NCBI GenBank assembly: GCA_031441465.1 | Contig: JANOEP010000016.1 | Coordinates: 129,301-193,300 of the forward strand | Source: a bacterium | GTDB taxonomy: Bacteria > Krumholzibacteriota > Krumholzibacteriia > LZORAL124-64-63 | DNA length: 64,000 bases | Direction of reading: 5' to 3' | In this document: piece after piece, positions 2,889 to 33,294 of the stretch | Position numbering within the stretch: the stretch's first letter is position 1 | How the letters are laid out: each line of letters begins with the position of its first letter | The notes under the pieces: generated by a model | The model's input: the letters and a program-made list of their open reading frames with translations, nothing else | What the model was told of the DNA's origin: nothing | Database searches by the model: none | Program-made: the position numbers and the translations under genes

Positions 2889-5546
2889 ATGAATCTCCGC
2901 CGTAGTATGGTCCTGGTCGCCTTGGTCTGCGCCTGCGCGGCATGGGGTGAGCCGGCGAACGCCGCCGTCGCGGATCTGCCGGACGAGGTGTTCTACCACA
3001 TCATGCCGATCGCTTGGCGGGACGGGAACAACGATGCGCAGCGGTTCGGGGACTTCGGTGGGCTGACGGCGTCGCTGCCGTACCTGCAGGGCCTCGGCGT
3101 GACGGCGATCTGGCTCAACCCGATCTTCCCGTCGCCCGCCTACCACGGCTACCAGCACGGGCCGGCTGATCAGCTCAACCCGTGGTTCGGGAACGAGGCC
3201 CAGCTGGTGTCGTTCCTGGAGGCGGCCCACGCCGCCGGCCTGAAGGTCTTCGTGGACTTCGTGGCCTACGGCATCAGCCGCGACGCGGTCTACTTCCAGG
3301 ACGCCTACGCGAACCCGTCCAGCGTCTACGACACCTGGTTGGCCTTCACCAACGCGGCCAACACGCAGTACCAGGGCTCGACCTTCACCACCTGGAACGG
3401 GGCCACGGTGCGGCAGATCTGGTGGGACCTGCGCGACCCCGGACCGGTTGGACTAGTCACGCAGTGGGCGCAGCACTGGCTCGACCCCGACGCCGACGGC
3501 GACTTCGGCGACGGCCTGGACGGCTACCGCCTCGACCACGTCTGGTCGACCTACCCCAACGGCACCGGTGGCTGGGGCTACCACATCGGCTCGTTCTGGG
3601 CCCCCTGGCGCGCGGCGCTGCGCGCGGTCAACCCCGACGTGGTCGTCTTCGCCGAGCAGGCCGACTGGGGCAGCTACGGCACCGACCTGTTCCCCGGGAT
3701 GGACGCCGCCTTCACCAAGCCCTTCGAGTTCGCCGCCCGCGACGCCCTGAGCTGGGAGGACGCCGGCCCGCTGTACTCGTCGATGTCCGCCACGGTCGCC
3801 GCCCGCGACGCGGCCGCGGTCGAGGGCACCTTCCTCTGCACGATCGGCAACCACGACGTCGGCCGCCTGGCCACCTCGATCGGCGATTCGTTCGCCAAGG
3901 GCAAGGCCGCCGCCGCCGTCCTGCTGACCCAGCCCTTCGCCCCGAACCTGTACTACGGCGACGAGATCGGCATGCGCGGCGCCAAGAACACGGGCTACGC
4001 GGGCGACGCCGCCGACATCCCCATGCGCGAGCCCTTCAAGTGGAACGCCGTGGCCGGCCCGCCGATGAGCAACTACTTCGTGCTGAACGCGGCCGCCTAC
4101 ACGGGGCGCATCTCGCAGAACAACGACGGCCGCAGCGTCGCCGAGCAGCAGGGCGTCTCCGGCTCCCTGCTGGAGGCCTACCGCGGGCTGATCGCCGCCC
4201 GCAGGGCCAGCGTCGCCCTGCGCCGCGGCGGCTACGCGCCGGTGACGGCGAGTGTGGCCTCCGTCTGGTCCTTCGTGCGCGACCACGCGGACCAGCAGGT
4301 CCTGGTCGCGATCAACGTGAGCGGCTCGTCGCGCTCACTCAGTCTGGACCTAGGCGATTTCGCGATCGCCGGCGGCGCGACCACCCCGACGGACCTGCTG
4401 ACCGGCGCGACGCTGCCCGCGCTCACCGACGCCAACAAAGGCGCCTACCCGCTGACTCTCGGCGCCTACGGCTACCGGCTGCTGCAGGTCGCGGTGACCG
4501 CTCCAGAGCCGCCGGCGAGCCTGCTGGACGGCCTCGCCGTGGCGAACCTCGCGCCGCCGCTGGCCCTCCAGGACACGCCGACCAACCTGGGCGACAACGT
4601 CTCGGAGCTGGACCGGCTGTTCGCCCGCGTCGCGGGCGATTCGCTCTTCGTCGGGCTGACCGGCAACCTCGCCACCGACGGAACCGGCCTCTGCCTGCTG
4701 CTGGACACCGCGCCCGGCGGCCAAATGGTCCTGGATCTCGGCGGCGTGCCCGTCCCGCCCAGCGGCCCCGAGCAGCTGACCGGGCTGCGCCTGGACGCGG
4801 GCTTCGCGCCGGACCAGCTGCTGTTCGTCAACGCCTACGCCGGCAACGTCTACGTGGACCAGTACACCCTGCCGGCGGGCGGCGGCGCCGTGAAGACCTA
4901 TCGTGGTGCGGGCGTCGTCGGCAGCGGCGGCGGCCTGCTGGCGGGCGGCGACAACCCCGATGGGATCCAGGTCGCGCTGGACAACCGCAACACCGCCGGC
5001 GTCACCGCGACCAGCGCGGCCGCGGCGGCCACCGCCGTCACCGGCTTCGAGATCTACCTGCCCGCGCTCAGCGTGGGCCTGGTGCCCGGCGAGGGCGCGG
5101 CGCCGCAGCTGGCGGCCTTCCTACTGCGGACCGACGGCGCGGTCACCAACCAGTGGCTGCCCGGACTGGGCGGCACGCTGACGGAGCCCGGCCTCGCACC
5201 GGACCTGGCCGACTACCCCGGCGACCAGTTCGTCGCCCTGCCGGCCGCCACCGCCGTGCCCGACACCGCCCCGTCGGTCTTCGGTCTGCGCGTCGAGCGG
5301 AACGCCGGTGCGGACACCGAGTTCTGGTTCCGCCTGCCCGAGGCCGCGGTCGCCCGCCTGGAGATCATCGATCTGCGCGGCCGCCGCGTGCGCACGCTGC
5401 TGGCCGGACCGGCCGTCGCGGGCGAGCAGATGGTCGCCTGGGACGGCGCCGACGACCGCGGGTCCCGCCAGCCGGGCGGGCTCTACCTGGCCAAGTTGAC
5501 GTCGGAGGGCCGCAGCGAGGTGCGGCGGGCGGTGCTGGTGCGGTGA
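2889..5546 (+). CDS. Secreted GH13 alpha-amylase family protein with C-terminal FlgD-Ig/T9SS-like domain
   Basis: Signal peptide; YHGYQ, DGYRLD, FAEQ, NHD and YYGDEIGM motifs; tail IIDLRGRRVRTL..WDGADDRG..GLYLAKL. GGAAGG RBS before ATG 2889. Confidence 0.9.
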   Translation: MNLRRSMVLVALVCACAAWGEPANAAVADLPDEVFYHIMPIAWRDGNNDAQRFGDFGGLTASLPYLQGLGVTAIWLNPIFPSPAYHGYQHGPADQLNPWFGNEAQLVSFLEAAHAAGLKVFVDFVAYGISRDAVYFQDAYANPSSVYDTWLAFTNAANTQYQGSTFTTWNGATVRQIWWDLRDPGPVGLVTQWAQHWLDPDADGDFGDGLDGYRLDHVWSTYPNGTGGWGYHIGSFWAPWRAALRAVNPDVVVFAEQADWGSYGTDLFPGMDAAFTKPFEFAARDALSWEDAGPLYSSMSATVAARDAAAVEGTFLCTIGNHDVGRLATSIGDSFAKGKAAAAVLLTQPFAPNLYYGDEIGMRGAKNTGYAGDAADIPMREPFKWNAVAGPPMSNYFVLNAAAYTGRISQNNDGRSVAEQQGVSGSLLEAYRGLIAARRASVALRRGGYAPVTASVASVWSFVRDHADQQVLVAINVSGSSRSLSLDLGDFAIAGGATTPTDLLTGATLPALTDANKGAYPLTLGAYGYRLLQVAVTAPEPPASLLDGLAVANLAPPLALQDTPTNLGDNVSELDRLFARVAGDSLFVGLTGNLATDGTGLCLLLDTAPGGQMVLDLGGVPVPPSGPEQLTGLRLDAGFAPDQLLFVNAYAGNVYVDQYTLPAGGGAVKTYRGAGVVGSGGGLLAGGDNPDGIQVALDNRNTAGVTATSAAAAATAVTGFEIYLPALSVGLVPGEGAAPQLAAFLLRTDGAVTNQWLPGLGGTLTEPGLAPDLADYPGDQFVALPAATAVPDTAPSVFGLRVERNAGADTEFWFRLPEAAVARLEIIDLRGRRVRTLLAGPAVAGEQMVAWDGADDRGSRQPGGLYLAKLTSEGRSEVRRAVLVR

Positions 5547-5989
5547 GGCGCTCGTCCCCGCGGTTCGTAAAGTTCTGCGTGGTCGGCGCCACGGGCGTGG
5601 TGGTCAATTCCGGGTCGTTGTGGTTGCTCACACGGCAGGCCGGTCTGGACTACCGCCTGGCCAGCCTCGTCGCCATCGAGCTGGCGATCGCCAACAACTT
5701 CCTCTGGAACGCCCGCTGGACCTTCCGCGCCCGCACGCGCGTCGCCCGCCCCGCGCTGGGGCGCATGTTCCTGAAGTTCAACCTGACCTCCGGGCTGACC
5801 GCGATGGCGGTCAACTGGGGACTGCTGCTCCTGCTGAAGGAAAAGGCGGGGATGGGCGTGGGCGCGGCCAACCTCGTCGGTATCGCGGCCGGCACGGCGG
5901 CCAACTTCCTGCTGAGCCGGGGCTGGGCCTTCCGCTCCGGGTCCGGCAACGCAGAGGACCCGGGTCGCCCCGGGTCCCCGCGCGGATGA
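5543..5989 (+). CDS. GtrA family membrane protein (putative lipid-linked sugar flippase)
   Basis: RFVKFCVVGATGVVVN, NNFLWNARWTF and NFLLSRGWAF with about 4 TM segments; GTG overlaps the upstream TGA. Confidence 0.85.
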   Translation: MRRSSPRFVKFCVVGATGVVVNSGSLWLLTRQAGLDYRLASLVAIELAIANNFLWNARWTFRARTRVARPALGRMFLKFNLTSGLTAMAVNWGLLLLLKEKAGMGVGAANLVGIAAGTAANFLLSRGWAFRSGSGNAEDPGRPGSPRG

Positions 5990-25748: not shown

Positions 25749-26438
25749 TCAGTCGAGGCGGGTGAAGAAGCGGCCCAGCCTCGGGCGCCAGCCGCGGTCC
25801 CGGTCGACCGAGGCCACGACGGCCAGGGCCCGGCCCTGCAGCGCGTCGCGGCCCACGAACCCGAAATAGCGCGAATCGAAACTGTTGTCGCGGTTGTCGC
25901 CCATGACCAGGTAGGAATCGGGCGGCACCGTCACCGGGCCGAAGTCCCGCAGGGCGCGCCCGTCCGGGGTCAGCATCACGGCGTGGCGGCGGCCGTCGAG
26001 GTCCTCGGTCAGCAGCTCGTGCCGGGCGGTGTCGTCGGGCGGGAGCGCCCAGCGCAGGTCCCCGGCGCGCGGCGTGCAGGCCAGAGGACGGCCGTCGATC
26101 GACAGCCGACCGTCGCGCATCGCCACCGAGTCGCCGGGCAGGCCGACCACGCGCTTGACCAGGCGGGTGCCGTCGTGGGGAGAGGACAGGACGACCACGT
26201 CGCCGTGCCGCGGCTCGCCGGTGCGCGCCAGTTCCCAGCCCGCCAGCGGCGCGCGCAGGGAGAAGGCGGTGCGGTCCACCAAGATGCGGTCGCCCTCGTA
26301 GATGGTGGGCTGCATCGAGCCCGTCGGGACGTCGTACCAGTTGGCGACCGCCGAGCGGAAGCTCAGCGCGCTCAGGACGACCACCAGCAGGGGCAGCTGG
26401 GAACGCAGGCGGCGGGCGAGGGAACTGGTCGGCGACAT
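25749..26438 (-). CDS. lepB: Signal peptidase I
   Basis: VPTGSMQPT (catalytic Ser), LVKRVVGLPGD (catalytic Lys) and MGDNRDNSFDSRYFG. Confidence 0.95.
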   Translation of the reverse strand: MSPTSSLARRLRSQLPLLVVVLSALSFRSAVANWYDVPTGSMQPTIYEGDRILVDRTAFSLRAPLAGWELARTGEPRHGDVVVLSSPHDGTRLVKRVVGLPGDSVAMRDGRLSIDGRPLACTPRAGDLRWALPPDDTARHELLTEDLDGRRHAVMLTPDGRALRDFGPVTVPPDSYLVMGDNRDNSFDSRYFGFVGRDALQGRALAVVASVDRDRGWRPRLGRFFTRLD

Positions 26439-26556
26439 CGGCGGGCCTCCGGCGGCGAGGAGGGCGGGTTGGCGGAGATCTTCATGTATACGTCCGCCTG
26501 GAAGACGCGGTTCCCGAGTCGTGGCGGGCCCCGTCGCCCGCGGCTATCCTGGACGC

Positions 26557-26880
26557 ATGTTCCACCCCGCGACACCGTCGTCCCGCGCTCCCGTTTTCAG
26601 GATCTTGACGGTCCTGCTCCTGCTGGCGAGCCTCGGCGCCTTCCAGGCCTCGCACCTCAAGCACCACTACGACCACGCGGATCGGCAGGCCCACGACGAT
26701 CGCTGCGCCCACAGCGGCCTCTGCGTCGTCTTCCATACCGGGACGCTCACCGAGGACGCCTTCGCGGCGCCTCGGGCCGGCTCCGCCGTCATCGCGCAGC
26801 TCCCGACCGCAGAGGTGCGAACGCTGGGCTTGCTCGTCCTGCCGAGGCGCGAGGCGCGTGCTCCGCCTGTTCCCGCCTGA
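26557..26880 (+). CDS. DUF2946-like leader protein: TM segment, His/Cys-rich region, C-terminal RAPP motif
   Basis: 107 aa ..ILTVLLLLASLGAFQASHLKHHYDHADRQAHDDRCAHSGLC..EARAPPVPA*, directly upstream of the metal-uptake genes. Start is uncertain (no clear SD). Confidence 0.7.
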   Translation: MFHPATPSSRAPVFRILTVLLLLASLGAFQASHLKHHYDHADRQAHDDRCAHSGLCVVFHTGTLTEDAFAAPRAGSAVIAQLPTAEVRTLGLLVLPRREARAPPVPA

Positions 26881-26981
26881 TCCCCACGACATCGCCCGAT
26901 ACTGATATGTTCCAGGTTCGGCGCGCCCGACGACCGCCGTCCGCGGTTCCCCGCGCGCGCCCGGAAACAAGGAGAGCGATC

Positions 26982-28124
26982 ATGTGCACCCGCATTCCCG
27001 TGGCGATCCTCATCGCCCTGGCGGCCCCGGCGCTCGGCATCGCCGCCGCGTCCTCCAGCACGGTCACCGGCATCTCGAGCCTGATGAATCCCGCCATCAG
27101 CGTCAACGCCCTGTTCCTGGGCGAAACGTCGCTCAACGACGACAGCGACGAAGCCAACCGCATCGGCCTGCAGGAGGCCGAGATGCAGTTCACGTCCGTG
27201 GTCGACCCGTTCTGGACCGCGGACCTGGTCATCGCCTACCACCAGGAGGCCGGCCACGACCACGGCGACGAGGAGGCCGCCGAGGCCGGGGGCGCGGCCG
27301 CCTTCGTCACCGACGTCGAGGTGGCGCGCATCCGCGCGCGCAGCCTGCCGGCAGGCCTGGGCCTGGTTCTGGGCAAGGACTACCTGCCCTTCGGCAAACA
27401 CGCGCCGTTGCACACCCACCAGTTCGCCTTCACGCGCGCGCCGCTGGCCGTGCGCACGTTCCTGGGCGACCACGGCCTCACCGAGGTCGGTGCGCGCGTC
27501 GAAGCGACGGTGCCGCTGCCCTGGTACTCGGAGGTCGTCGCCTACGCCGTCAACGGCGACGCCGAGATCTTCGACGCTCACGACCGCGACCTCGCCTGGG
27601 GAGCGCGCTGGACGCAACTCTGGGACGTGGCGCCGACCGCCACGCTGGAACTGGGCGGCTCGCTGCTGAATGGGCCGGGCGCCCGCGAACCGGACGGGCC
27701 GGCCGTCGGCCTGAGCGTCTCCGGCCTCGATCTCACCTACAAGTGGGTCGACGGTGGGCAGGCCCACGGCCCGGCCGTGGTCTGGACGAGCGAGCTGATC
27801 CTGCCCGACACGGCGGCCTTCGGGCACGAGCCGTGGGGCTGGTATTCGCATCTGCAGGCCCGATTCCGCCGCAACTTGTGGCTGGGCCTGGGAGCGAGCG
27901 GCATCGCCGACTTGCCGCACGAAGAGGCCGGCCCCGACGAAGTGGATGCCGGCTCGTACAGGTGGGACGAATACCGGTTGGACCTGACCTTCGTCCCCAG
28001 TGAATATAGCTCGCTGCGCGCCGAGGTGTCGGCCATCGTCCCGCAGTCCAGTGAGGCTGACGACCTGCGCTTCTCGCTGCAGTGGAACTTCACCATCGGG
28101 TCGCACCCGGCCCATCTCTACTAG
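26982..28124 (+). CDS. Outer-membrane beta-barrel associated with metal (Zn/Ni/Co) uptake
   Basis: Signal peptide, NPAISV, EAEMQFTSVVDPF, HTHQFAF, His loop, C-terminal IGSHPAHLY; AAGGAG RBS. Confidence 0.75.
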   Translation: MCTRIPVAILIALAAPALGIAAASSSTVTGISSLMNPAISVNALFLGETSLNDDSDEANRIGLQEAEMQFTSVVDPFWTADLVIAYHQEAGHDHGDEEAAEAGGAAAFVTDVEVARIRARSLPAGLGLVLGKDYLPFGKHAPLHTHQFAFTRAPLAVRTFLGDHGLTEVGARVEATVPLPWYSEVVAYAVNGDAEIFDAHDRDLAWGARWTQLWDVAPTATLELGGSLLNGPGAREPDGPAVGLSVSGLDLTYKWVDGGQAHGPAVVWTSELILPDTAAFGHEPWGWYSHLQARFRRNLWLGLGASGIADLPHEEAGPDEVDAGSYRWDEYRLDLTFVPSEYSSLRAEVSAIVPQSSEADDLRFSLQWNFTIGSHPAHLY

Positions 28125-28134
28125 GAGGCTCGTC

Positions 28135-29088
28135 ATGAGGATCCGCACCAGGATCGCGACGGTCGCCGTCGGGCTGGCAGTCTGCCTCTCTTGCCTCGTC
28201 GCTCCGCCGTGCGCGGCCGCCGACGGTCCGCTGCAGGTGGCGGCCACCCTCTCGGATCTCGCCTGCGTGGCGCGCGCCGTGGGCGGCGCGGACGTCGAGG
28301 TCACGGTCCTCTGCCCCGGCGGCATGGACCCGCACTACCTGCCCGCCAAGCCCTCGCTGTCGCGCAAGCTGGGCCAGGCCGACGCGCTGCTGTTCAACGG
28401 CCTCGAGCTGGAGATCGGCTGGCTGCCGCCGCTGCTGGAGAAGGCCCGCAACCCGCGCGTGCGCGACGGCGCGCCCGGGCTGATCGACTGCTCCGCGGCC
28501 CTGGACGCGGTTCTGGATGTCCCGAGCGGCCCCGTCGACCGCGGGATGGGCGACATCCATCCGCAGGGCAACCCGCACTACACCGTCGACCCGCGACGGA
28601 TGATCGACGTGACGCTGTTCGTCGGGCGCCGCTTCGGCGAACTGGATCCACCGCGCGCCGCGGCGTACCGGGACCGGGCCGAGGCCTACGCCGCGCTGTT
28701 GCGCGGCCGTTTGCCGGTCTGGCAGGAGCGGACCGCCGGTCTGCGCACCCGTCACGTCCTGCTGAACCACCAGCACTGGAACTACCTCTGCGACTGGCTC
28801 GGCCTGGACGTGATCGGCGAGATCGAACACCGCCCCGGCATCGCGCCCTCGCCGCGGCACGTGCAGGACATGGTGGAGAAGTCCCGCGCGCTGGGCGATG
28901 TCGTGATCGTGGCCGCGAACTGGGACCATCTCGACGTGGTGCGCGAGATCGCGAGCCGGGCCGGCGCGTCCCTGGCGATCCTGCCGGGACACTCCGGCGC
29001 GGAGGCGGGCACCGACGACTACGTCGCGTTCCTGGACGAGCTGACGCGGCGCCTGGCCGGAGCGGCCGCGGCGCCGGGCAAGGAGTAG
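28135..29088 (+). CDS. Metal ABC transporter substrate-binding protein (ZnuA/TroA cluster A-I)
   Basis: DPHYL, NGLELEIGWL, GDIHPQGNPHY and PSPRH motifs. Confidence 0.9.
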   Translation: MRIRTRIATVAVGLAVCLSCLVAPPCAAADGPLQVAATLSDLACVARAVGGADVEVTVLCPGGMDPHYLPAKPSLSRKLGQADALLFNGLELEIGWLPPLLEKARNPRVRDGAPGLIDCSAALDAVLDVPSGPVDRGMGDIHPQGNPHYTVDPRRMIDVTLFVGRRFGELDPPRAAAYRDRAEAYAALLRGRLPVWQERTAGLRTRHVLLNHQHWNYLCDWLGLDVIGEIEHRPGIAPSPRHVQDMVEKSRALGDVVIVAANWDHLDVVREIASRAGASLAILPGHSGAEAGTDDYVAFLDELTRRLAGAAAAPGKE

Positions 29089-29090
29089 TC

Positions 29091-29912
29091 ATGGACGGCT
29101 TCCTGGAGATGATGGCGGCGCCGGTCGTGATGGCGCTGGTGCTGGTGGCGATGCACTCCCACCTCGGCCACCACGTGGTGCGGCGCGGCGTGATCTTCGT
29201 CGACATCGCCCTGGCCCAGGTCGCCGCCTTCGGGGTGGCGATCTCCCTGCTGCTGGGCGGGGAGATCGGCACCGACAGCACGTACGCCGTGGCCCTGGGC
29301 AGCACCTTCCTGGGCGCCCTGCTGATCTCGCGCACGCGCGGCAAATCGGAGCGCGTGCCGCAGGAGGCGTACATCGGGATCATCTACGCCGTCTGCAGCG
29401 CGGCGATGATCCTGGTGCTGACCCAGGTGCCGCACGGCGGGGAGGAGATCAACCACCTGCTGGTCGGGGCGATCCTCTGGGTCACCTGGCCGACCCTGCT
29501 GAAGACCGCCGCTCTCTACGCCGTCCTGGGCTTCCTGCTCTGGCGGTGGCGCGGGCCGCTGGACCGGATCTCCGCCGACGCCGAGGCGGCCCGGCGCGAG
29601 GGGCTGCCGCTGCGGCGCTGGGATTTCGCGTTCTACCTGATCCTGGGCACGGTCGTGACCTCCAGCGTGCAGATCGCGGGCGTGCTGCTGGTGTTCACGC
29701 TGCTGGTGGTGCCCACGGTCATGAGCGTGCGCCTGTTCGCCGACCACCGCCGCCACTTCGGCTACACGCTGGCGGTGGGTGTCGCGGCGGTGGTGCTCGG
29801 CGCCGCGCTGAGCTACGTGCTGGACCTGCCCACCGGCGCGGCCATCGTCTGCGTGTTCGGGCTGCTGCTGGGGCTGCAGGTCCTGCTGGAGTCCCTGCTG
29901 CGGCGCGGTTGA
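29091..29912 (+). CDS. Metal ABC transporter permease (ZnuB/ABC-3)
   Basis: HVVRRGVIFVDIALAQVAAFG, EAYIG, GVLLVFTLLVVP and DLPTGAAIV motifs. Confidence 0.9.
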   Translation: MDGFLEMMAAPVVMALVLVAMHSHLGHHVVRRGVIFVDIALAQVAAFGVAISLLLGGEIGTDSTYAVALGSTFLGALLISRTRGKSERVPQEAYIGIIYAVCSAAMILVLTQVPHGGEEINHLLVGAILWVTWPTLLKTAALYAVLGFLLWRWRGPLDRISADAEAARREGLPLRRWDFAFYLILGTVVTSSVQIAGVLLVFTLLVVPTVMSVRLFADHRRHFGYTLAVGVAAVVLGAALSYVLDLPTGAAIVCVFGLLLGLQVLLESLLRRG

Positions 29913-30027
29913 CGGCCGATTCCCGGTTGCCCCGCTCCTCCGCATGTCGCATTCTCGACACCGGCGCCGTTCCCCGCTGGGACGGCGCCGGCGCCCGTAC
30001 CGCCCCACGCCGATCCGGGAGAACACC

Positions 30028-33000
30028 ATGAAGAGAACGCTGTGGATCCTCGCCGCCGTCGCGCTGCTCACTGCGCCCGCCGCCGCGCCGGCGAAAGACA
30101 AGGAAGAGACGGACAAGAACCCCCTGAACGCCGACACCTTCGCGGGGCTCGGGCTGCGCCTGCTGGGGCCGGCCGTCTCTTCAGGGCGCGTGGGCGACTT
30201 CGCCGTCAACCCCGCCGACCCCGCCGAGTATTACGTGGCGGTCAGCAGCGGCGGCGTCTGGAAGACGGTCAACGCCGGCACCACCTACGAGCCGGTCTTC
30301 GACGGCGAGGGATCCTTCTCGATCGGCTGCGTGACCCTCGACCCGCGCGACCCGAAGATCGTCTGGGTGGGCACCGGCGAGAACAACAGCCAGCGCAGCG
30401 TCGCCTACGGTGACGGCGTCTACAAGTCGGTCGACGGCGGCAAGCACTGGTCGAACACCGGCTTGAAGGAGTCCGAGCACATCGGCATGATCGTCGTGGA
30501 CCCCCGCGACTCCGACGTGGTCTACGTCGCCGCCCAGGGCCCGCTGTGGCGTTCCGGCGGCGACCGGGGTCTCTACCGCACGGCCGACGGCGGCGCCACC
30601 TGGCTGAAGATCCTCGACATCTCGCCCGACACCGGCGTCAGCGAGTTGCGCCTGGACCCGCGCGACCCCGACGTGATGTACGCCGTCAGCTACCAGCGCC
30701 GCCGGCACATCTGGGTGCTGCTGGACGGCGGTCCCGAATCGGCGATCCACAAGAGCGTCGACGGCGGCAAGACCTGGCGCAAGCTGACGCACGGGTTGCC
30801 CGAGGGCGACCTCGGCCGCATCGGCATCACGGTGTCGCCCGTCCGGCCGGACCTGGTCTTCGCCATCGTGGAAGCGGCCGAGAAGGGCGGCTTCTACCGC
30901 AGCGACGACGCCGGTGAGAACTGGCGCCTGATGAGCGACTACGTCGCCACCAGCCCGCAGTACTACCAGGAGATCTTCGCCGATCCGCACGCCGCCGAGC
31001 GGGTGTACTCCCTGGACACCTACTTCCAGGTGACCGAGGACGGCGGCGCCAACTGGAAGCGCGTGCCGATCGAATTCAAGCACGTCGACGACCACGCCCT
31101 GTGGATCGACCCGGACGACGTCGACCACCTGCTGATCGGCTGCGACGGCGGGATCTACGAGACCTGGGACCGCGGCGCGACCTGGGACTACAAGGCCAAC
31201 CTGCCGGTCACGCAGTTCTACAAGGTGGCCGTCGACCAGGCCCTGCCCTTCTACAACGTCTACGGCGGGACCCAGGACAACAACACGCTCGGCGGCCCGT
31301 CGCGCACGTTCAACAACCACGGCCTGCGCAACAGCGACTGGTTCGTGACCCAGGGAGGCGACGGCTTCGAGCCGCAGGTCGACCCGACCGATCCCGCCGT
31401 CGTCTACAGCCAGTACCAGCACGGCGGCCTAGCCCGCTTCGACCGGCACAGCGGCGAGAGCCTGGACATCCAGCCCCAGCCCGCCTGGGGCGAGCCGGCC
31501 TACCGCTTCAACTGGAACTCCCCGCTGCTGATCAGCCCCCACGACCACCGCCGGCTCTACTTCGGCTGCCAGAAGCTGCTGCGCAGCGACGACCGCGGCG
31601 AGAGCTGGACGGAGATCAGCGGCGATCTCTCCCGTGGGATCGACCGCAACCGCCTCGAGGTGATGGGCAAGCTGTGGAGCGTGGACGCGGTGGCCAAGAA
31701 CCGCAGCACCTCGTTCTACGGCAGCCTGATCGGCCTGGACGAATCGGTGCTGCAGGAGGGGCTGATCTACGTCGGCACCGACGACGGTCTGGTGCAGGTC
31801 ACCCTCGACGGCGGCCGCACCTGGCAGCAGCGGGACGACTTCCCGGGCGTGCCCGAGATGGCCTTCGTGGAGGACATCGACGCGGACCGCCACCGCGTCG
31901 CGACCGTGTACGTCTGCCTCGACAACCACAAGAAGGGCGACTTCAAGCCCTACCTGCTGCGCAGCGACGACCACGGCCGGACCTGGCGCAGCATTGCCGG
32001 CGACCTGCCGGAGCGCGGCAGCGTCCACTGCTTCGTGCAGGACCACGTGAACCCGGACCTGCTGTTCTGCGGCACCGAGTTCGGCGTGTACTGCACGCTG
32101 GACGGCGGCGGACACTGGGTGCGCCTCAAGGGCGGCCTCCCGGTCATCTCGGTGCGCGACCTGGAGATCCAGCGGCGCGAGAACGACCTGGTCGTCGGCA
32201 CCTTCGGCCGCGGCATCTACGTTCTGGACGACTACTCGCCGCTGCGCGTCATCACCGGCGCCGCCCTGCAGGACGAGCCGGCCCTGCTGTTCCCGGTCAA
32301 GGACGCGCTGCTGTACAACGAGGCCTCGCCCCTGGGCGGCCGCCGCAAGGGCAGCCAGGGCGACAGCTTCTACCAGACCGACAACCCCCCGTTCGGCGCC
32401 GTCTTCACGCTCCACCTCAAGGAGAAGCTGTCCGGCCGCCGCGACCAGCGCCACGAGTGCGAGAAGGCCCTGGACGAGAAGAAGGAGCCGGTCCGCTACC
32501 CGAGCTGGGACGAACTGCGGGCCGAGGACCGCGAGGACGCCCCGGGCTACTTCCTGGCGATCTCCGACCTCGACGGCCGCGTGGTGCGCCGCGTCTCCGT
32601 GGCCAACAAGGCCGGCCTGCAGCGCGTGTCCTGGAACCTGCGGGACCCGTCGCTGCGCCCGGCCGGCAAGACGCCGAGCGAGGACGGCGGCCCGCTGGTG
32701 GCGCCCGGGCAGTACGTCGCGCAGTTGATGCGCAGGGTGGACGAGGTCGTGACGCCGCTGGCGGCGCCGCAGCGGTTCACGGTCAAGCCGCTCTCCCTCG
32801 CGTTGCTCGCGACGCGGGAGCCGACGGAGCTGCAGCGCTTCCAGCGCGGCGTCGCGGAGCTGCAGCGGGCCGTCCTGGGCGCGATCGAAAAAGTCGACGA
32901 GGTGCAAGAACGTATTGACCACGTCAAGCCGGCGTTGTTCAATACGTCCGAGGCGAGCGACGCCGACCTCGTGGCGTTGCGCGCGATCGAGACCCGGCTG

Positions 33001-33294
33001 GCGGACCTGCGCGTGATCCTGCAGGGCGACGACACGATCGCCTCGCGCAACGAACCCACGCCGCCGTCGCTGTCCGAGCGCATCGAGCGTGTCGCCTACG
33101 GGAGCTGGGAGTCCTCGTCGGCGCCGACCGGGACCCACCGCGAGACCTACCGCACGGTGGGCGAACGGTTCCCGCAGGTGCAGCTGGACCTGGCCGCGGT
33201 CGACGCGGACCTCGCCGAGTTCGAGAGGATGCTGGAGGCCATGGGTGCGCCGTGGACGCCGGGACGGAGCCCGGTGTGGAGGGCTGACAAGTAA
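30028..33294 (+). CDS. Secreted VPS10/sortilin-like BNR-repeat glycosyl hydrolase
   Basis: Signal peptide; GPAVSSGRV; repeated (S/T)xDGGxTW Asp-box motifs; GGTQDN; GTFGRG. Confidence 0.88.
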   Translation: MKRTLWILAAVALLTAPAAAPAKDKEETDKNPLNADTFAGLGLRLLGPAVSSGRVGDFAVNPADPAEYYVAVSSGGVWKTVNAGTTYEPVFDGEGSFSIGCVTLDPRDPKIVWVGTGENNSQRSVAYGDGVYKSVDGGKHWSNTGLKESEHIGMIVVDPRDSDVVYVAAQGPLWRSGGDRGLYRTADGGATWLKILDISPDTGVSELRLDPRDPDVMYAVSYQRRRHIWVLLDGGPESAIHKSVDGGKTWRKLTHGLPEGDLGRIGITVSPVRPDLVFAIVEAAEKGGFYRSDDAGENWRLMSDYVATSPQYYQEIFADPHAAERVYSLDTYFQVTEDGGANWKRVPIEFKHVDDHALWIDPDDVDHLLIGCDGGIYETWDRGATWDYKANLPVTQFYKVAVDQALPFYNVYGGTQDNNTLGGPSRTFNNHGLRNSDWFVTQGGDGFEPQVDPTDPAVVYSQYQHGGLARFDRHSGESLDIQPQPAWGEPAYRFNWNSPLLISPHDHRRLYFGCQKLLRSDDRGESWTEISGDLSRGIDRNRLEVMGKLWSVDAVAKNRSTSFYGSLIGLDESVLQEGLIYVGTDDGLVQVTLDGGRTWQQRDDFPGVPEMAFVEDIDADRHRVATVYVCLDNHKKGDFKPYLLRSDDHGRTWRSIAGDLPERGSVHCFVQDHVNPDLLFCGTEFGVYCTLDGGGHWVRLKGGLPVISVRDLEIQRRENDLVVGTFGRGIYVLDDYSPLRVITGAALQDEPALLFPVKDALLYNEASPLGGRRKGSQGDSFYQTDNPPFGAVFTLHLKEKLSGRRDQRHECEKALDEKKEPVRYPSWDELRAEDREDAPGYFLAISDLDGRVVRRVSVANKAGLQRVSWNLRDPSLRPAGKTPSEDGGPLVAPGQYVAQLMRRVDEVVTPLAAPQRFTVKPLSLALLATREPTELQRFQRGVAELQRAVLGAIEKVDEVQERIDHVKPALFNTSEASDADLVALRAIETRLADLRVILQGDDTIASRNEPTPPSLSERIERVAYGSWESSSAPTGTHRETYRTVGERFPQVQLDLAAVDADLAEFERMLEAMGAPWTPGRSPVWRADK

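Follow-up and report, generated by a model that had tools for sequence, protein, structure and literature searches.

Two metal-sensing arrest peptides have been described so far, CruR of Bordetella pertussis and CutF of Rhodobacter capsulatus, both in copper systems, with opposite polarity and different outputs. CruR (Bp2923), a DUF2946 (PF11162) protein, carries its Cys motif 45 residues ahead of a RAPP arrest motif, and altering this spacing impairs regulation (Roy et al. 2022, PMC9426467). The same 45-residue spacing was stressed for CutF by Ozturk et al. (bioRxiv 2022.11.11.516240), and the CutF-like proteins in that work were sorted by sequence into 29 clusters, whose motifs consist of Cys, of His or of both and whose neighbours are not all copper genes. 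Here we describe a leader open reading frame (ORF) of 107 amino acids (aa) in a 64,000-nucleotide (nt) stretch of contig JANOEP010000016.1 (the window, to which all positions refer unless a locus is named). The leader precedes the gene for a porin-like outer-membrane barrel, which is followed by genes for a binding protein resembling ZnuA and a permease resembling ZnuB. On balance we consider it somewhat probable that the leader is a cis-acting, metal-responsive arrest peptide of the DUF2946/CruR/CutF type, which unmasks the ribosome-binding site of the barrel gene and is released from its stall by metal. It is a known kind of leader; the novelty lies in its ligand set, its target operon and the phyla in which it occurs.

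Like CruR, the window leader is a small ORF at the head of a metal-uptake operon whose next gene encodes an outer-membrane transporter, and it combines a putative N-terminal export signal with a Cys motif 44-45 residues before RAPP and a RAPP three residues before the stop codon. The expected polarity, in which metal turns the importer off, is also that of CruR. In contrast to CruR, it has a single conserved Cys, His60 and an upstream KHHYDH in place of CXXC, and its Pfam score is sub-threshold. Its target is a 16-strand porin-like barrel with ZnuA and ZnuB, whereas CruR precedes a TonB-dependent transporter and a PepSY protein. Its intergenic region measures 101 rather than 162 nt, and the RNA features of its family point to masking of the Shine-Dalgarno (SD) sequence, not to Rho termination. 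The host of CruR is a proteobacterium, whereas that of the window is an uncultured high-GC bacterium with relatives among metagenome-assembled genomes labelled Latescibacterota.

The resemblance to CutF (Ozturk et al. 2023 mBio) lies in an exported leader in which some 45 residues separate the metal motif from a Pro-rich stall site at the C-terminus, and in an anti-SD at the 3′ end of the leader, where the stalled ribosome opens a stem that masks the downstream gene's SD; for the window such an arrangement is a candidate read from sequence. CutF has a CxxxC motif and controls a Cu-induced copper-detoxifying oxidase, whereas the window leader precedes an importer and probably works with the reverse polarity. 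ApdA, ApdP and SecM share this arrest core: in each, it lies close to the C-terminus of a small protein, secreted or membrane-bound, that is encoded upstream of the gene under control (PMC10951233, PMC12992588). Those peptides monitor Sec/YidC activity, whereas the genes downstream of the window leader include no Sec or YidC component.

Conservation and kinship of the leader

Among 5.8 billion proteins searched, 14 homologues of the leader were identified (105-106 aa, 62-73% identity), all of which start with M-F/L. The profile of this window clade gave only 14 matches at E ≤ 0.001 against 1.84 billion representatives. K35-H40, C56, V58-F59-H60-T61-G62 and E99-A-R-A-P-P-V105 were invariant in the 15 aligned leaders, and H33 was nearly so. 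RAPP alone is not significant, because R[AGSD]PP occurs in the last 12 aa of 8 of the 482 stop-to-stop ORFs of ≥60 aa in the 70% GC window, seven of them resembling off-frame Arg/Pro-rich noise; conservation is what counts. Compared with three related loci (L001, L002 and L004), the leader showed 19-21 synonymous and 27-34 non-synonymous codon differences and was proportionally constrained like the barrel gene. Identity between the window and these relatives was 72-78% in the intergenic region, 79-81% in the leader and 80-81% in the barrel gene. An alignment figure of 92% was discounted, as the three relatives behind it are nearly identical to each other; within the intergenic region, 78-88% is reached only by the 3′ 66 nt.

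Conservation was also analyzed through the barrel gene. An alignment of 31 of at least 286 barrel homologues was used to fetch loci, with one genome per species; 177 pattern matches yielded 136 tblastn-confirmed loci, and the best 80 of the 136 collapsed to 78 distinct loci (L001-L078). The leader test was confined to loci with 450 nt or more of upstream sequence (70 loci) and asked for a plus-strand ORF of ≥60 aa ending within 450 nt of the barrel gene. In 66 of the 70, such an ORF carried R[AGSD]PP among its final 12 aa, compared with 106 of 6475 among all ORFs of the barrel loci, the leaders themselves counted in. Conservation of RAPP upstream of homologous operons, a check that the first-pass annotation of this DNA had proposed, was seen both within the window clade (15/15) and across the barrel-anchored loci. 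In the 68 leaders in which variants were counted, the motif was RAPP (41), RGPP (13), RSPP (12) or RDPP (2), located 2-7 and mostly 3 residues before the stop codon. These are the same four variants that were graded in PMC12992588, where arrest was strongest with RAPP and RGPP, whereas RSPP and RDPP were permissive in part. By its sequence, the window ORF is a conserved, translated-looking regulatory leader with RAPP at a fixed position.

The four loci that failed the test differed in kind, and three of them proved on inspection to have a leader. In L078 the RAPP leader stops 515 nt before the barrel gene, in L074 RAPP is followed by a longer tail, and the ORF at 1880-2230 in L062 has RASP where its relative L065 has RAPP. 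L016 has no leader ORF; a divergent Fur-family regulator gene (5288-5785, minus strand; PF01475, E 9e-11) adjoins its barrel gene instead, which we count in favor of a regulatory leader. Neither the window nor any of the other 77 loci yielded such a Fur-family gene. The L062 ORF is possibly a decayed leader. Another possible case is a RAPP-ending ORF of L066 (5671-5889), which has neither start codon nor hydrophobic segment and seems frame-shifted relative to L017 and L031.

Several lines of evidence relate the leader to DUF2946. Residues 31-104 aligned to the last 73 positions of the Pfam profile with 18.8 bits (E 0.0029), and 9 of the 15 window-clade members matched it at E ≤ 1, none above threshold. 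Among the sister leaders of the barrel loci, 18 of 68 matched at E ≤ 0.1 and two exceeded the gathering score (L025, 24.5; L026, 25.1), L025 being of the window's own single-Cys type. When the window clade was compared by hhalign with 26 CxxC-type sister leaders, a set that includes a threshold-passing member, the probability was 95.4% (E 1.7e-8, 81 columns), with C56 placed on the second Cys of CxxC and RAPP on RxPP. The nearest named Atlas cluster of the window leader was DUF2946 at 0.93, which is a weak lead only, and a search with the L026 leader found no further DUF2946-labelled relatives.

The spacing between Cys and the Arg of the arrest motif was also maintained. C56 and R101 are 44 residues apart in the window leader, and the same value was found in 11 of the 15 CxxxH-type leaders, window included. 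The median was 43 in the 42 CxxC-type leaders, and 55 of the 57 leaders with CxxC or CxxxH fell between 42 and 45. The window leader shares with DUF2946 proteins a C-terminal RAPP near the stop codon, a spacing of about 45 residues and detectable homology; in its length (107 aa), its Pro-Pro (103-104), its gap to the next gene (101 nt) and its His cluster with C56/H60 it agrees with CutF-like proteins in the broad sense of Ozturk et al. Because of the sub-threshold Pfam match, the profile match and the Cys-Arg spacing, we place it on a divergent branch of the DUF2946/CruR/CutF family. Judged by sequence, it is a divergent relative of these leaders, outside the strict family criteria; the kinship with DUF2946 and CruR that had been suggested at first pass is upheld in this form (hhalign 95.4%; spacing 44 as against 45 in CruR).

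The same data bear on the possibility that the small protein, exported or held in the membrane, chiefly serves the transporter as a metal-binding accessory, for example a chaperone or an anchor, and that its RAPP is a pause without regulatory output. We regard this as very unlikely: RxPP is held 2-7 residues from the stop codon and 42-45 residues from Cys in 55 of 57 CxxC/CxxxH leaders, and the codons that encode it are complementary to the SD sequence of the next gene (see below). The stretch between Cys and RAPP is poorly conserved, and the alignment of CxxC-type leaders is invariant only at C, C, R, P and P. RxPP is, moreover, among the most avoided tetrapeptides in proteomes (PMC12992588). 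On the other side, His/Cys-rich exported small proteins exist, weak matches to the small metal-binding protein SMBP were obtained with L019 and P0139, and some DUF2946-like proteins (CzcI) have no Pro motif (Ozturk et al.). The hydrophobic segment at residues 16-29 may be an export signal or an N-in/C-out membrane anchor. Its -3/-1 pattern is not clearly canonical for a Sec signal peptide, and the segment may be an uncleaved anchor.

The ATG of the window leader has no SD sequence. In the window clade, TATCCT (26545-26550) lies 6 nt before this ATG and a conserved GTATAC palindrome is found at 26486-26491. Read from sequence, the two may represent a promoter, from which a leaderless mRNA would start, and an operator.

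Predicted pairing of the arrest codons with the barrel Shine-Dalgarno sequence

The first-pass annotation had noted that the RNA coding for RAPP is partly complementary to the SD region of the barrel gene, and had suggested that stalling frees the SD sequence. A stalled ribosome covers about 15 nt on either side, here of 26863, and this footprint would include the candidate anti-SD. The arms gctccgcctgttcc and ggaaacaaggagagc were predicted to be able to form a duplex of -17.7 kcal/mol and were paired in the minimum free energy fold of 26840-26995. In the RNAalifold consensus of the window, L001, L002 and L004, GGAG is matched by C(U/G)CC in the Pro codons and GGAAAC by GUUUCC in the tail codons. 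The resulting closing helices enclose a junction with a helix that includes the stop codon and with the G+C-rich hairpin P3. No Rfam family matched 26300-27200 at E ≤ 1.

The SD sequence was predicted to be paired in all 68 loci, and more than half of its partner probability was inside the 30-nt footprint of the stalled ribosome in 55 of them. Codon choice gave a corresponding signal. CUCC occurred within the four RxPP codons of 46 of 69 loci, compared with 21.9 expected from synonymous resampling, and the first Pro codon was CCU in 37 loci (15.1 expected). For 55 of 69 loci the duplex between the stall window and the SD sequence exceeded the synonymous null in strength, and in 19 the difference reached p ≤ 0.05. 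When each locus was paired with its own arm rather than with the arms of other loci, the duplex energy was -20.07 rather than -16.04 kcal/mol and 0 of 5000 permutations were as low, although G+C content shared within a locus may contribute to this difference. At the level of the 34 leader clusters, CUCC was present in 22 (10.5 expected) and the partner was inside the footprint in 28. The consensus structures of two sub-clades were 95.4% and 89.5% paired, compared with 30-53% for slid controls, with compensatory changes mostly in the inner hairpins. Pairing of the arrest and tail codons with the barrel SD sequence is thus predicted with a strong family-wide signal and a weak one for the window locus alone. 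In the sub-clade with DHDAKFH-type leaders (L013, L018, L030 and L037-L041), the Pro-Pro codons of all eight members contain CUCCUG, which is paired with CAGGAG in the SD region.

These observations also bear on attenuation of the CruR type, in which the stalled ribosome would shield the RNA from Rho, metal-induced release would lead to Rho termination before the barrel gene, and the helix would be secondary. CruR, the closest characterized importer-linked relative, works in this way (PMC9426467), and C exceeded G in the intergenic region of 52 of 69 loci (C 0.40 and G 0.29 in the window). On the plus strand, neither an intrinsic terminator nor a sigma-70 promoter was found; the lack of a terminator fits Rho. 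However, the intergenic regions have a median of 74 nt, 21 of the 69 being shorter than 60 nt, compared with 162 nt in CruR, and they are predicted to be highly structured. Structured RNA is poor ground for Rho loading. A strong C>G bias resembling Rho utilization (rut) sites was sought and was weak, since C/G reached 1.5 or more in only 11 of 69 loci. Attenuation by Rho also leaves the CUCC codon bias and the locus-specific complementarity of the arms unexplained. We consider it unlikely as the main output, and Rho termination can coexist with SD masking through Rho polarity.

The importer operon, its ligand variants and the candidate metal

The operon context was retained across the family: a ZnuA-like gene follows the barrel gene in 77 of 78 loci and a permease gene is present in 74, three of the misses being cut contigs while L011 has no permease. 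The metal-uptake setting claimed at first pass is supported by this synteny. An ABC ATPase signature (Walker A and LSGGQ) was found nowhere in the 64-kb window, and in 5 of the 78 related loci within the fetched flanks. Pfam searches on 31 members of the barrel family produced one BBP2 match and one weak Porin_4 match; OprB or another porin Pfam domain was not detected in the barrel, and its profile matched no PDB sequence at E ≤ 1. The AlphaFold2 model from 31 sequences had a signal helix and 16 strands (predicted local distance difference test score, pLDDT, 82; predicted template modelling score, pTM, 0.78). Its top Foldseek matches were OmpT, OmpM1, OprP and Omp32 (E 5e-11 to 5e-10, TM score 0.52-0.60), which places the modelled barrel among the 16-strand porins by fold. 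The motifs LHTHQF (about residues 143-148) and IGSHPAHLY (C-terminus) are invariant in the family and a His/acidic loop lies at 87-98, a sequence pattern that suggests a metal-selective pore. The positions of all features are given in Table 1, and the coordinates and sequence features of the first-pass annotation were all found as given there. A signal peptidase I neighbor, head-to-head with the leader in the window, is also suggested in L002 and L004 by the pattern of antisense ORFs.

Table 1. Features of the leader and of the surrounding genes in the window (SD, Shine-Dalgarno)
Feature	Positions	Strand	Remarks
Signal peptidase I gene	25749..26438	-	head-to-head with the leader
Leader ORF, 107 aa plus stop	26557..26880	+	ATG 26557, TGA 26878-26880
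Hydrophobic segment ILTVLLLLASLGAF, residues 16-29, after basic R10 and R15	26602..26643	+	read from the sequence; conserved in the window-clade alignment
His cluster H33-x2-H36-H37-x2-H40...H46	26653..26694	+	K35-H36-H37-Y38-D39-H40 invariant in 15/15 sequences
C56-V-V-F-H60	26722..26736	+	C56, V58, F59 and H60 invariant in 15 aligned sequences
RAPP arrest motif (CGT GCT CCG CCT), residues R101-P104 of 107	26857..26868	+	EARAPPV invariant, 15/15
Candidate anti-SD arm gctccgcctgttcc in the arrest and tail codons	26860..26873	+	from folds and duplex; ambiguous for the window locus
Intergenic region between leader and barrel gene, 101 nt	26881..26981	+	5′ 35 nt 46% conserved; 3′ 66 nt 78-88% identical to relatives
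G+C-rich hairpin P3, directly 5′ of the SD arm	26920..26961	+	RNAalifold, window with L001/L002/L004: 15 pairs, 14 kept in 4/4
SD arm of the barrel gene, ggaaacaaggagagc (GGAAACAAGGAGAGC)	26963..26977	+	core AGGAG 26970-26974
Porin-like outer-membrane barrel, 380 aa, uncharacterized family with conserved His motifs	26982..28124	+	ATG 26982; without Pfam match
ZnuA-family periplasmic metal-binding protein	28135..29088	+	PF01297, E 5e-38
ABC-3 (ZnuB/AztB-like) permease	29085..29912	+	PF00950, E 2e-31; start uncertain, GTG 29085 or ATG 29091
BNR/sortilin-repeat protein, 1116 aa, ORF after the permease	29944..33294		

The His/Cys stretch of the window leader reads H33-LKHHYDH-...-H46-...-C50-AHSGL-C56-VVF-H60, with H52 also present. 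The Cx5C ligand set of the first-pass annotation was rejected because C50 is not conserved: it occurs in 1 of the 15 aligned sequences, that of the window. The conserved candidate ligands are H36, H37 and H40 (with H33 nearly invariant), C56 and H60. Over 69 leaders of the same operon, 42 were of the CxxC type, 15 had a single Cys with His, and 12 were of other types. Nine of these 12 belong to the KFH type, which has no Cys at the CxxC position and carries a His 39-40 residues before Arg, at the position of H60.

The best-scoring models for the ZnuA-like protein were AztC (Zn) and MntC (Mn), both far below their cut-offs. The structure 6r3z is among its top PDB matches, on which the literature gave nothing of use. 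In an alignment to 6ru4, the protein has His, His, His and Asp at the matching positions, which we take to be the usual ligand positions of the ZnuA-type binding-protein family. In the work of Ozturk et al., His-only CutF-like clusters were linked with Ni/Co genes. Zn is our first guess as the most likely metal to be sensed, and Ni, Co, Cu and Mn are also candidates.

The nature of the target genes is also the main point on which polarity can be argued. Importers are usually repressed by their metal, and we favor the CruR polarity because the target is an importer, as in CruR. The reverse arrangement, in which metal prolongs the stall and turns the operon on, for instance because the sensed metal differs from the transported one or because the operon has a role other than scavenging, appears improbable to us given the ZnuA-family and ABC-3 genes downstream and the Fur-family regulator at the single leaderless locus. 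CutF does unmask an SD sequence with that polarity (bioRxiv 2022.11.11.516240, 2025.02.05.636593), and the RNA architecture predicted here is similar.

Proposed mechanism and its meaning for the family

In the mechanism that we favor, metal releases an arrest that keeps the barrel SD sequence open. The hydrophobic segment would bring the nascent chain to the membrane, and the His cluster H33-H46 together with C56/H60 would form a metal site outside, or emerging from, the translocon when the ribosome is at RAPP. The stall at RAPP would place Pro103 in the P site; the P/A-site assignment comes from ApdA/ApdP structures, and CruR toeprints agree with it (PMC12992588). RAPP is followed by V-P-A and the stop codon. 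At the stall, residues 33-46 would lie beyond the translocon, and C56/H60, at 43-47 residues from the peptidyl-transferase center, would just be emerging. The stalled ribosome would occupy the arrest and tail codons that are otherwise paired with the barrel SD region, so that the SD sequence would be exposed and the porin-ZnuA-ZnuB operon translated.

Without metal, the stall would persist and the operon would stay on. A metal ion that bridges the His cluster, by then exported, and the Cys/His pair, still emerging, would put tension on the chain and release the stall; termination would follow three codons on, the helix would re-form and the operon would be turned off. The shut-off may be reinforced by Rho-dependent polarity, as the message is then untranslated. 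Force-profile work on a zinc finger reportedly shows that metal-dependent folding can release a SecM-type arrest. SD unmasking is favored as the output because the architecture is that of cutF-cutO, with an anti-SD at the 3′ end of the leader.

Several observations weigh against this mechanism. Stalling and the response to metal are inferred from the sequence, and the polarity is drawn from importer logic and from a single Fur-bearing locus (L016). The leader scores below the PF11162 gathering threshold (18.8 vs 23.7 bits) and has no CxxC. SD-like 4-mers precede only 12 of 65 predicted leader starts, compared with 66 of 68 barrel starts. At the window locus itself, the fold of 26840-26995, which covers the RNAfold check proposed in the first-pass annotation, contains the expected arms but is no more stable than shuffled sequences (z -0.17), and the duplex of arrest codons and SD sequence does not beat the synonymous-codon null (z -1.28, p 0.14). 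When 60 nt of upstream context was added, the window SD sequence paired with about 26828-26840 instead, and its partner mass in the footprint was 0.00.

The computed accessibilities point in the same direction. Masking the footprint raised the mean unpaired probability of the SD sequence from 0.09 to 0.20, with 2 of 68 loci exceeding 0.5. When the arm and everything upstream were removed, the mean accessibility was 0.32 and 12 of 68 loci exceeded 0.5; in the window, this removal changed the value from 0.38 to 0.44. The closing helix of the KFH clade has no covariation support because it is invariant there. A clean thermodynamic on/off switch was thus not obtained in these calculations. The pairing proposed at first pass is supported for the family, with the partner inside the footprint in 55 of 68 loci and a biased codon choice, and is ambiguous for the window locus taken by itself; the family-wide RNA design supports the idea of SD unmasking better than the window's own sequence does.

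A more specific version can be put forward only tentatively, and we regard it as rather doubtful. The leader would be a nascent-chain sensor for Zn or another non-copper divalent metal, in which the His cluster and the emerging Cys/His pair clamp the ion and the resulting pull releases the RAPP arrest. The Pro-Pro and tail codons would serve as the anti-SD of a dedicated porin-ZnuA-ZnuB importer that has no ATPase gene of its own. Across the 34 leader clusters the ligand set would have been re-tuned (CxxC, single Cys with His, or Cys-free His), while the ruler of 39-45 residues and the output were kept fixed.

Published surveys touch this class at several points. In a source table of Fujiwara et al. 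(EMBO J 2025), upstream ORFs with RAPP are enriched before genes annotated as carbohydrate porin (54, compared with 5 for AAPP), and one precedes a zinc-regulated TonB receptor. The main text of that paper does not mention zinc, ZnuA or porins, and the searched part of its source tables contains no leader of the KHHYDH type. The published contexts of CruR homologues comprise TonB-dependent transporters, PepSY, ScoC, PCuAC, YcnI, CopC, MbnPH and AhpC. Our searches of the literature on DUF2946, CruR/CutF and RAPP arrest peptides turned up no account of a leader ahead of a porin-ZnuA-ZnuB operon.

The genomes carrying the barrel loci are metagenome-assembled and labelled Latescibacterota, Krumholzibacteriia, Gemmatimonadales, Poribacteria, Neomarinimicrobiota, Eisenbacteria and Fibrobacteraceae, the last probably wrongly. 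The window clade extends the principle of metal-sensing arrest peptides to uncultured phyla in the neighborhood of Fibrobacterota, Chlorobiota and Bacteroidota, to an ABC-type importer with its own porin, and to His-dominated ligand sets. Natural ligand variants before one operon, with an invariant spacer, make the family suited to testing how metal specificity depends on ligand chemistry and whether the spacer acts as a ruler. The tendency of the arrest codons towards CCUCC/CUCC, complementary to the SD sequence of the next gene, provides a simple and testable design rule for the class.

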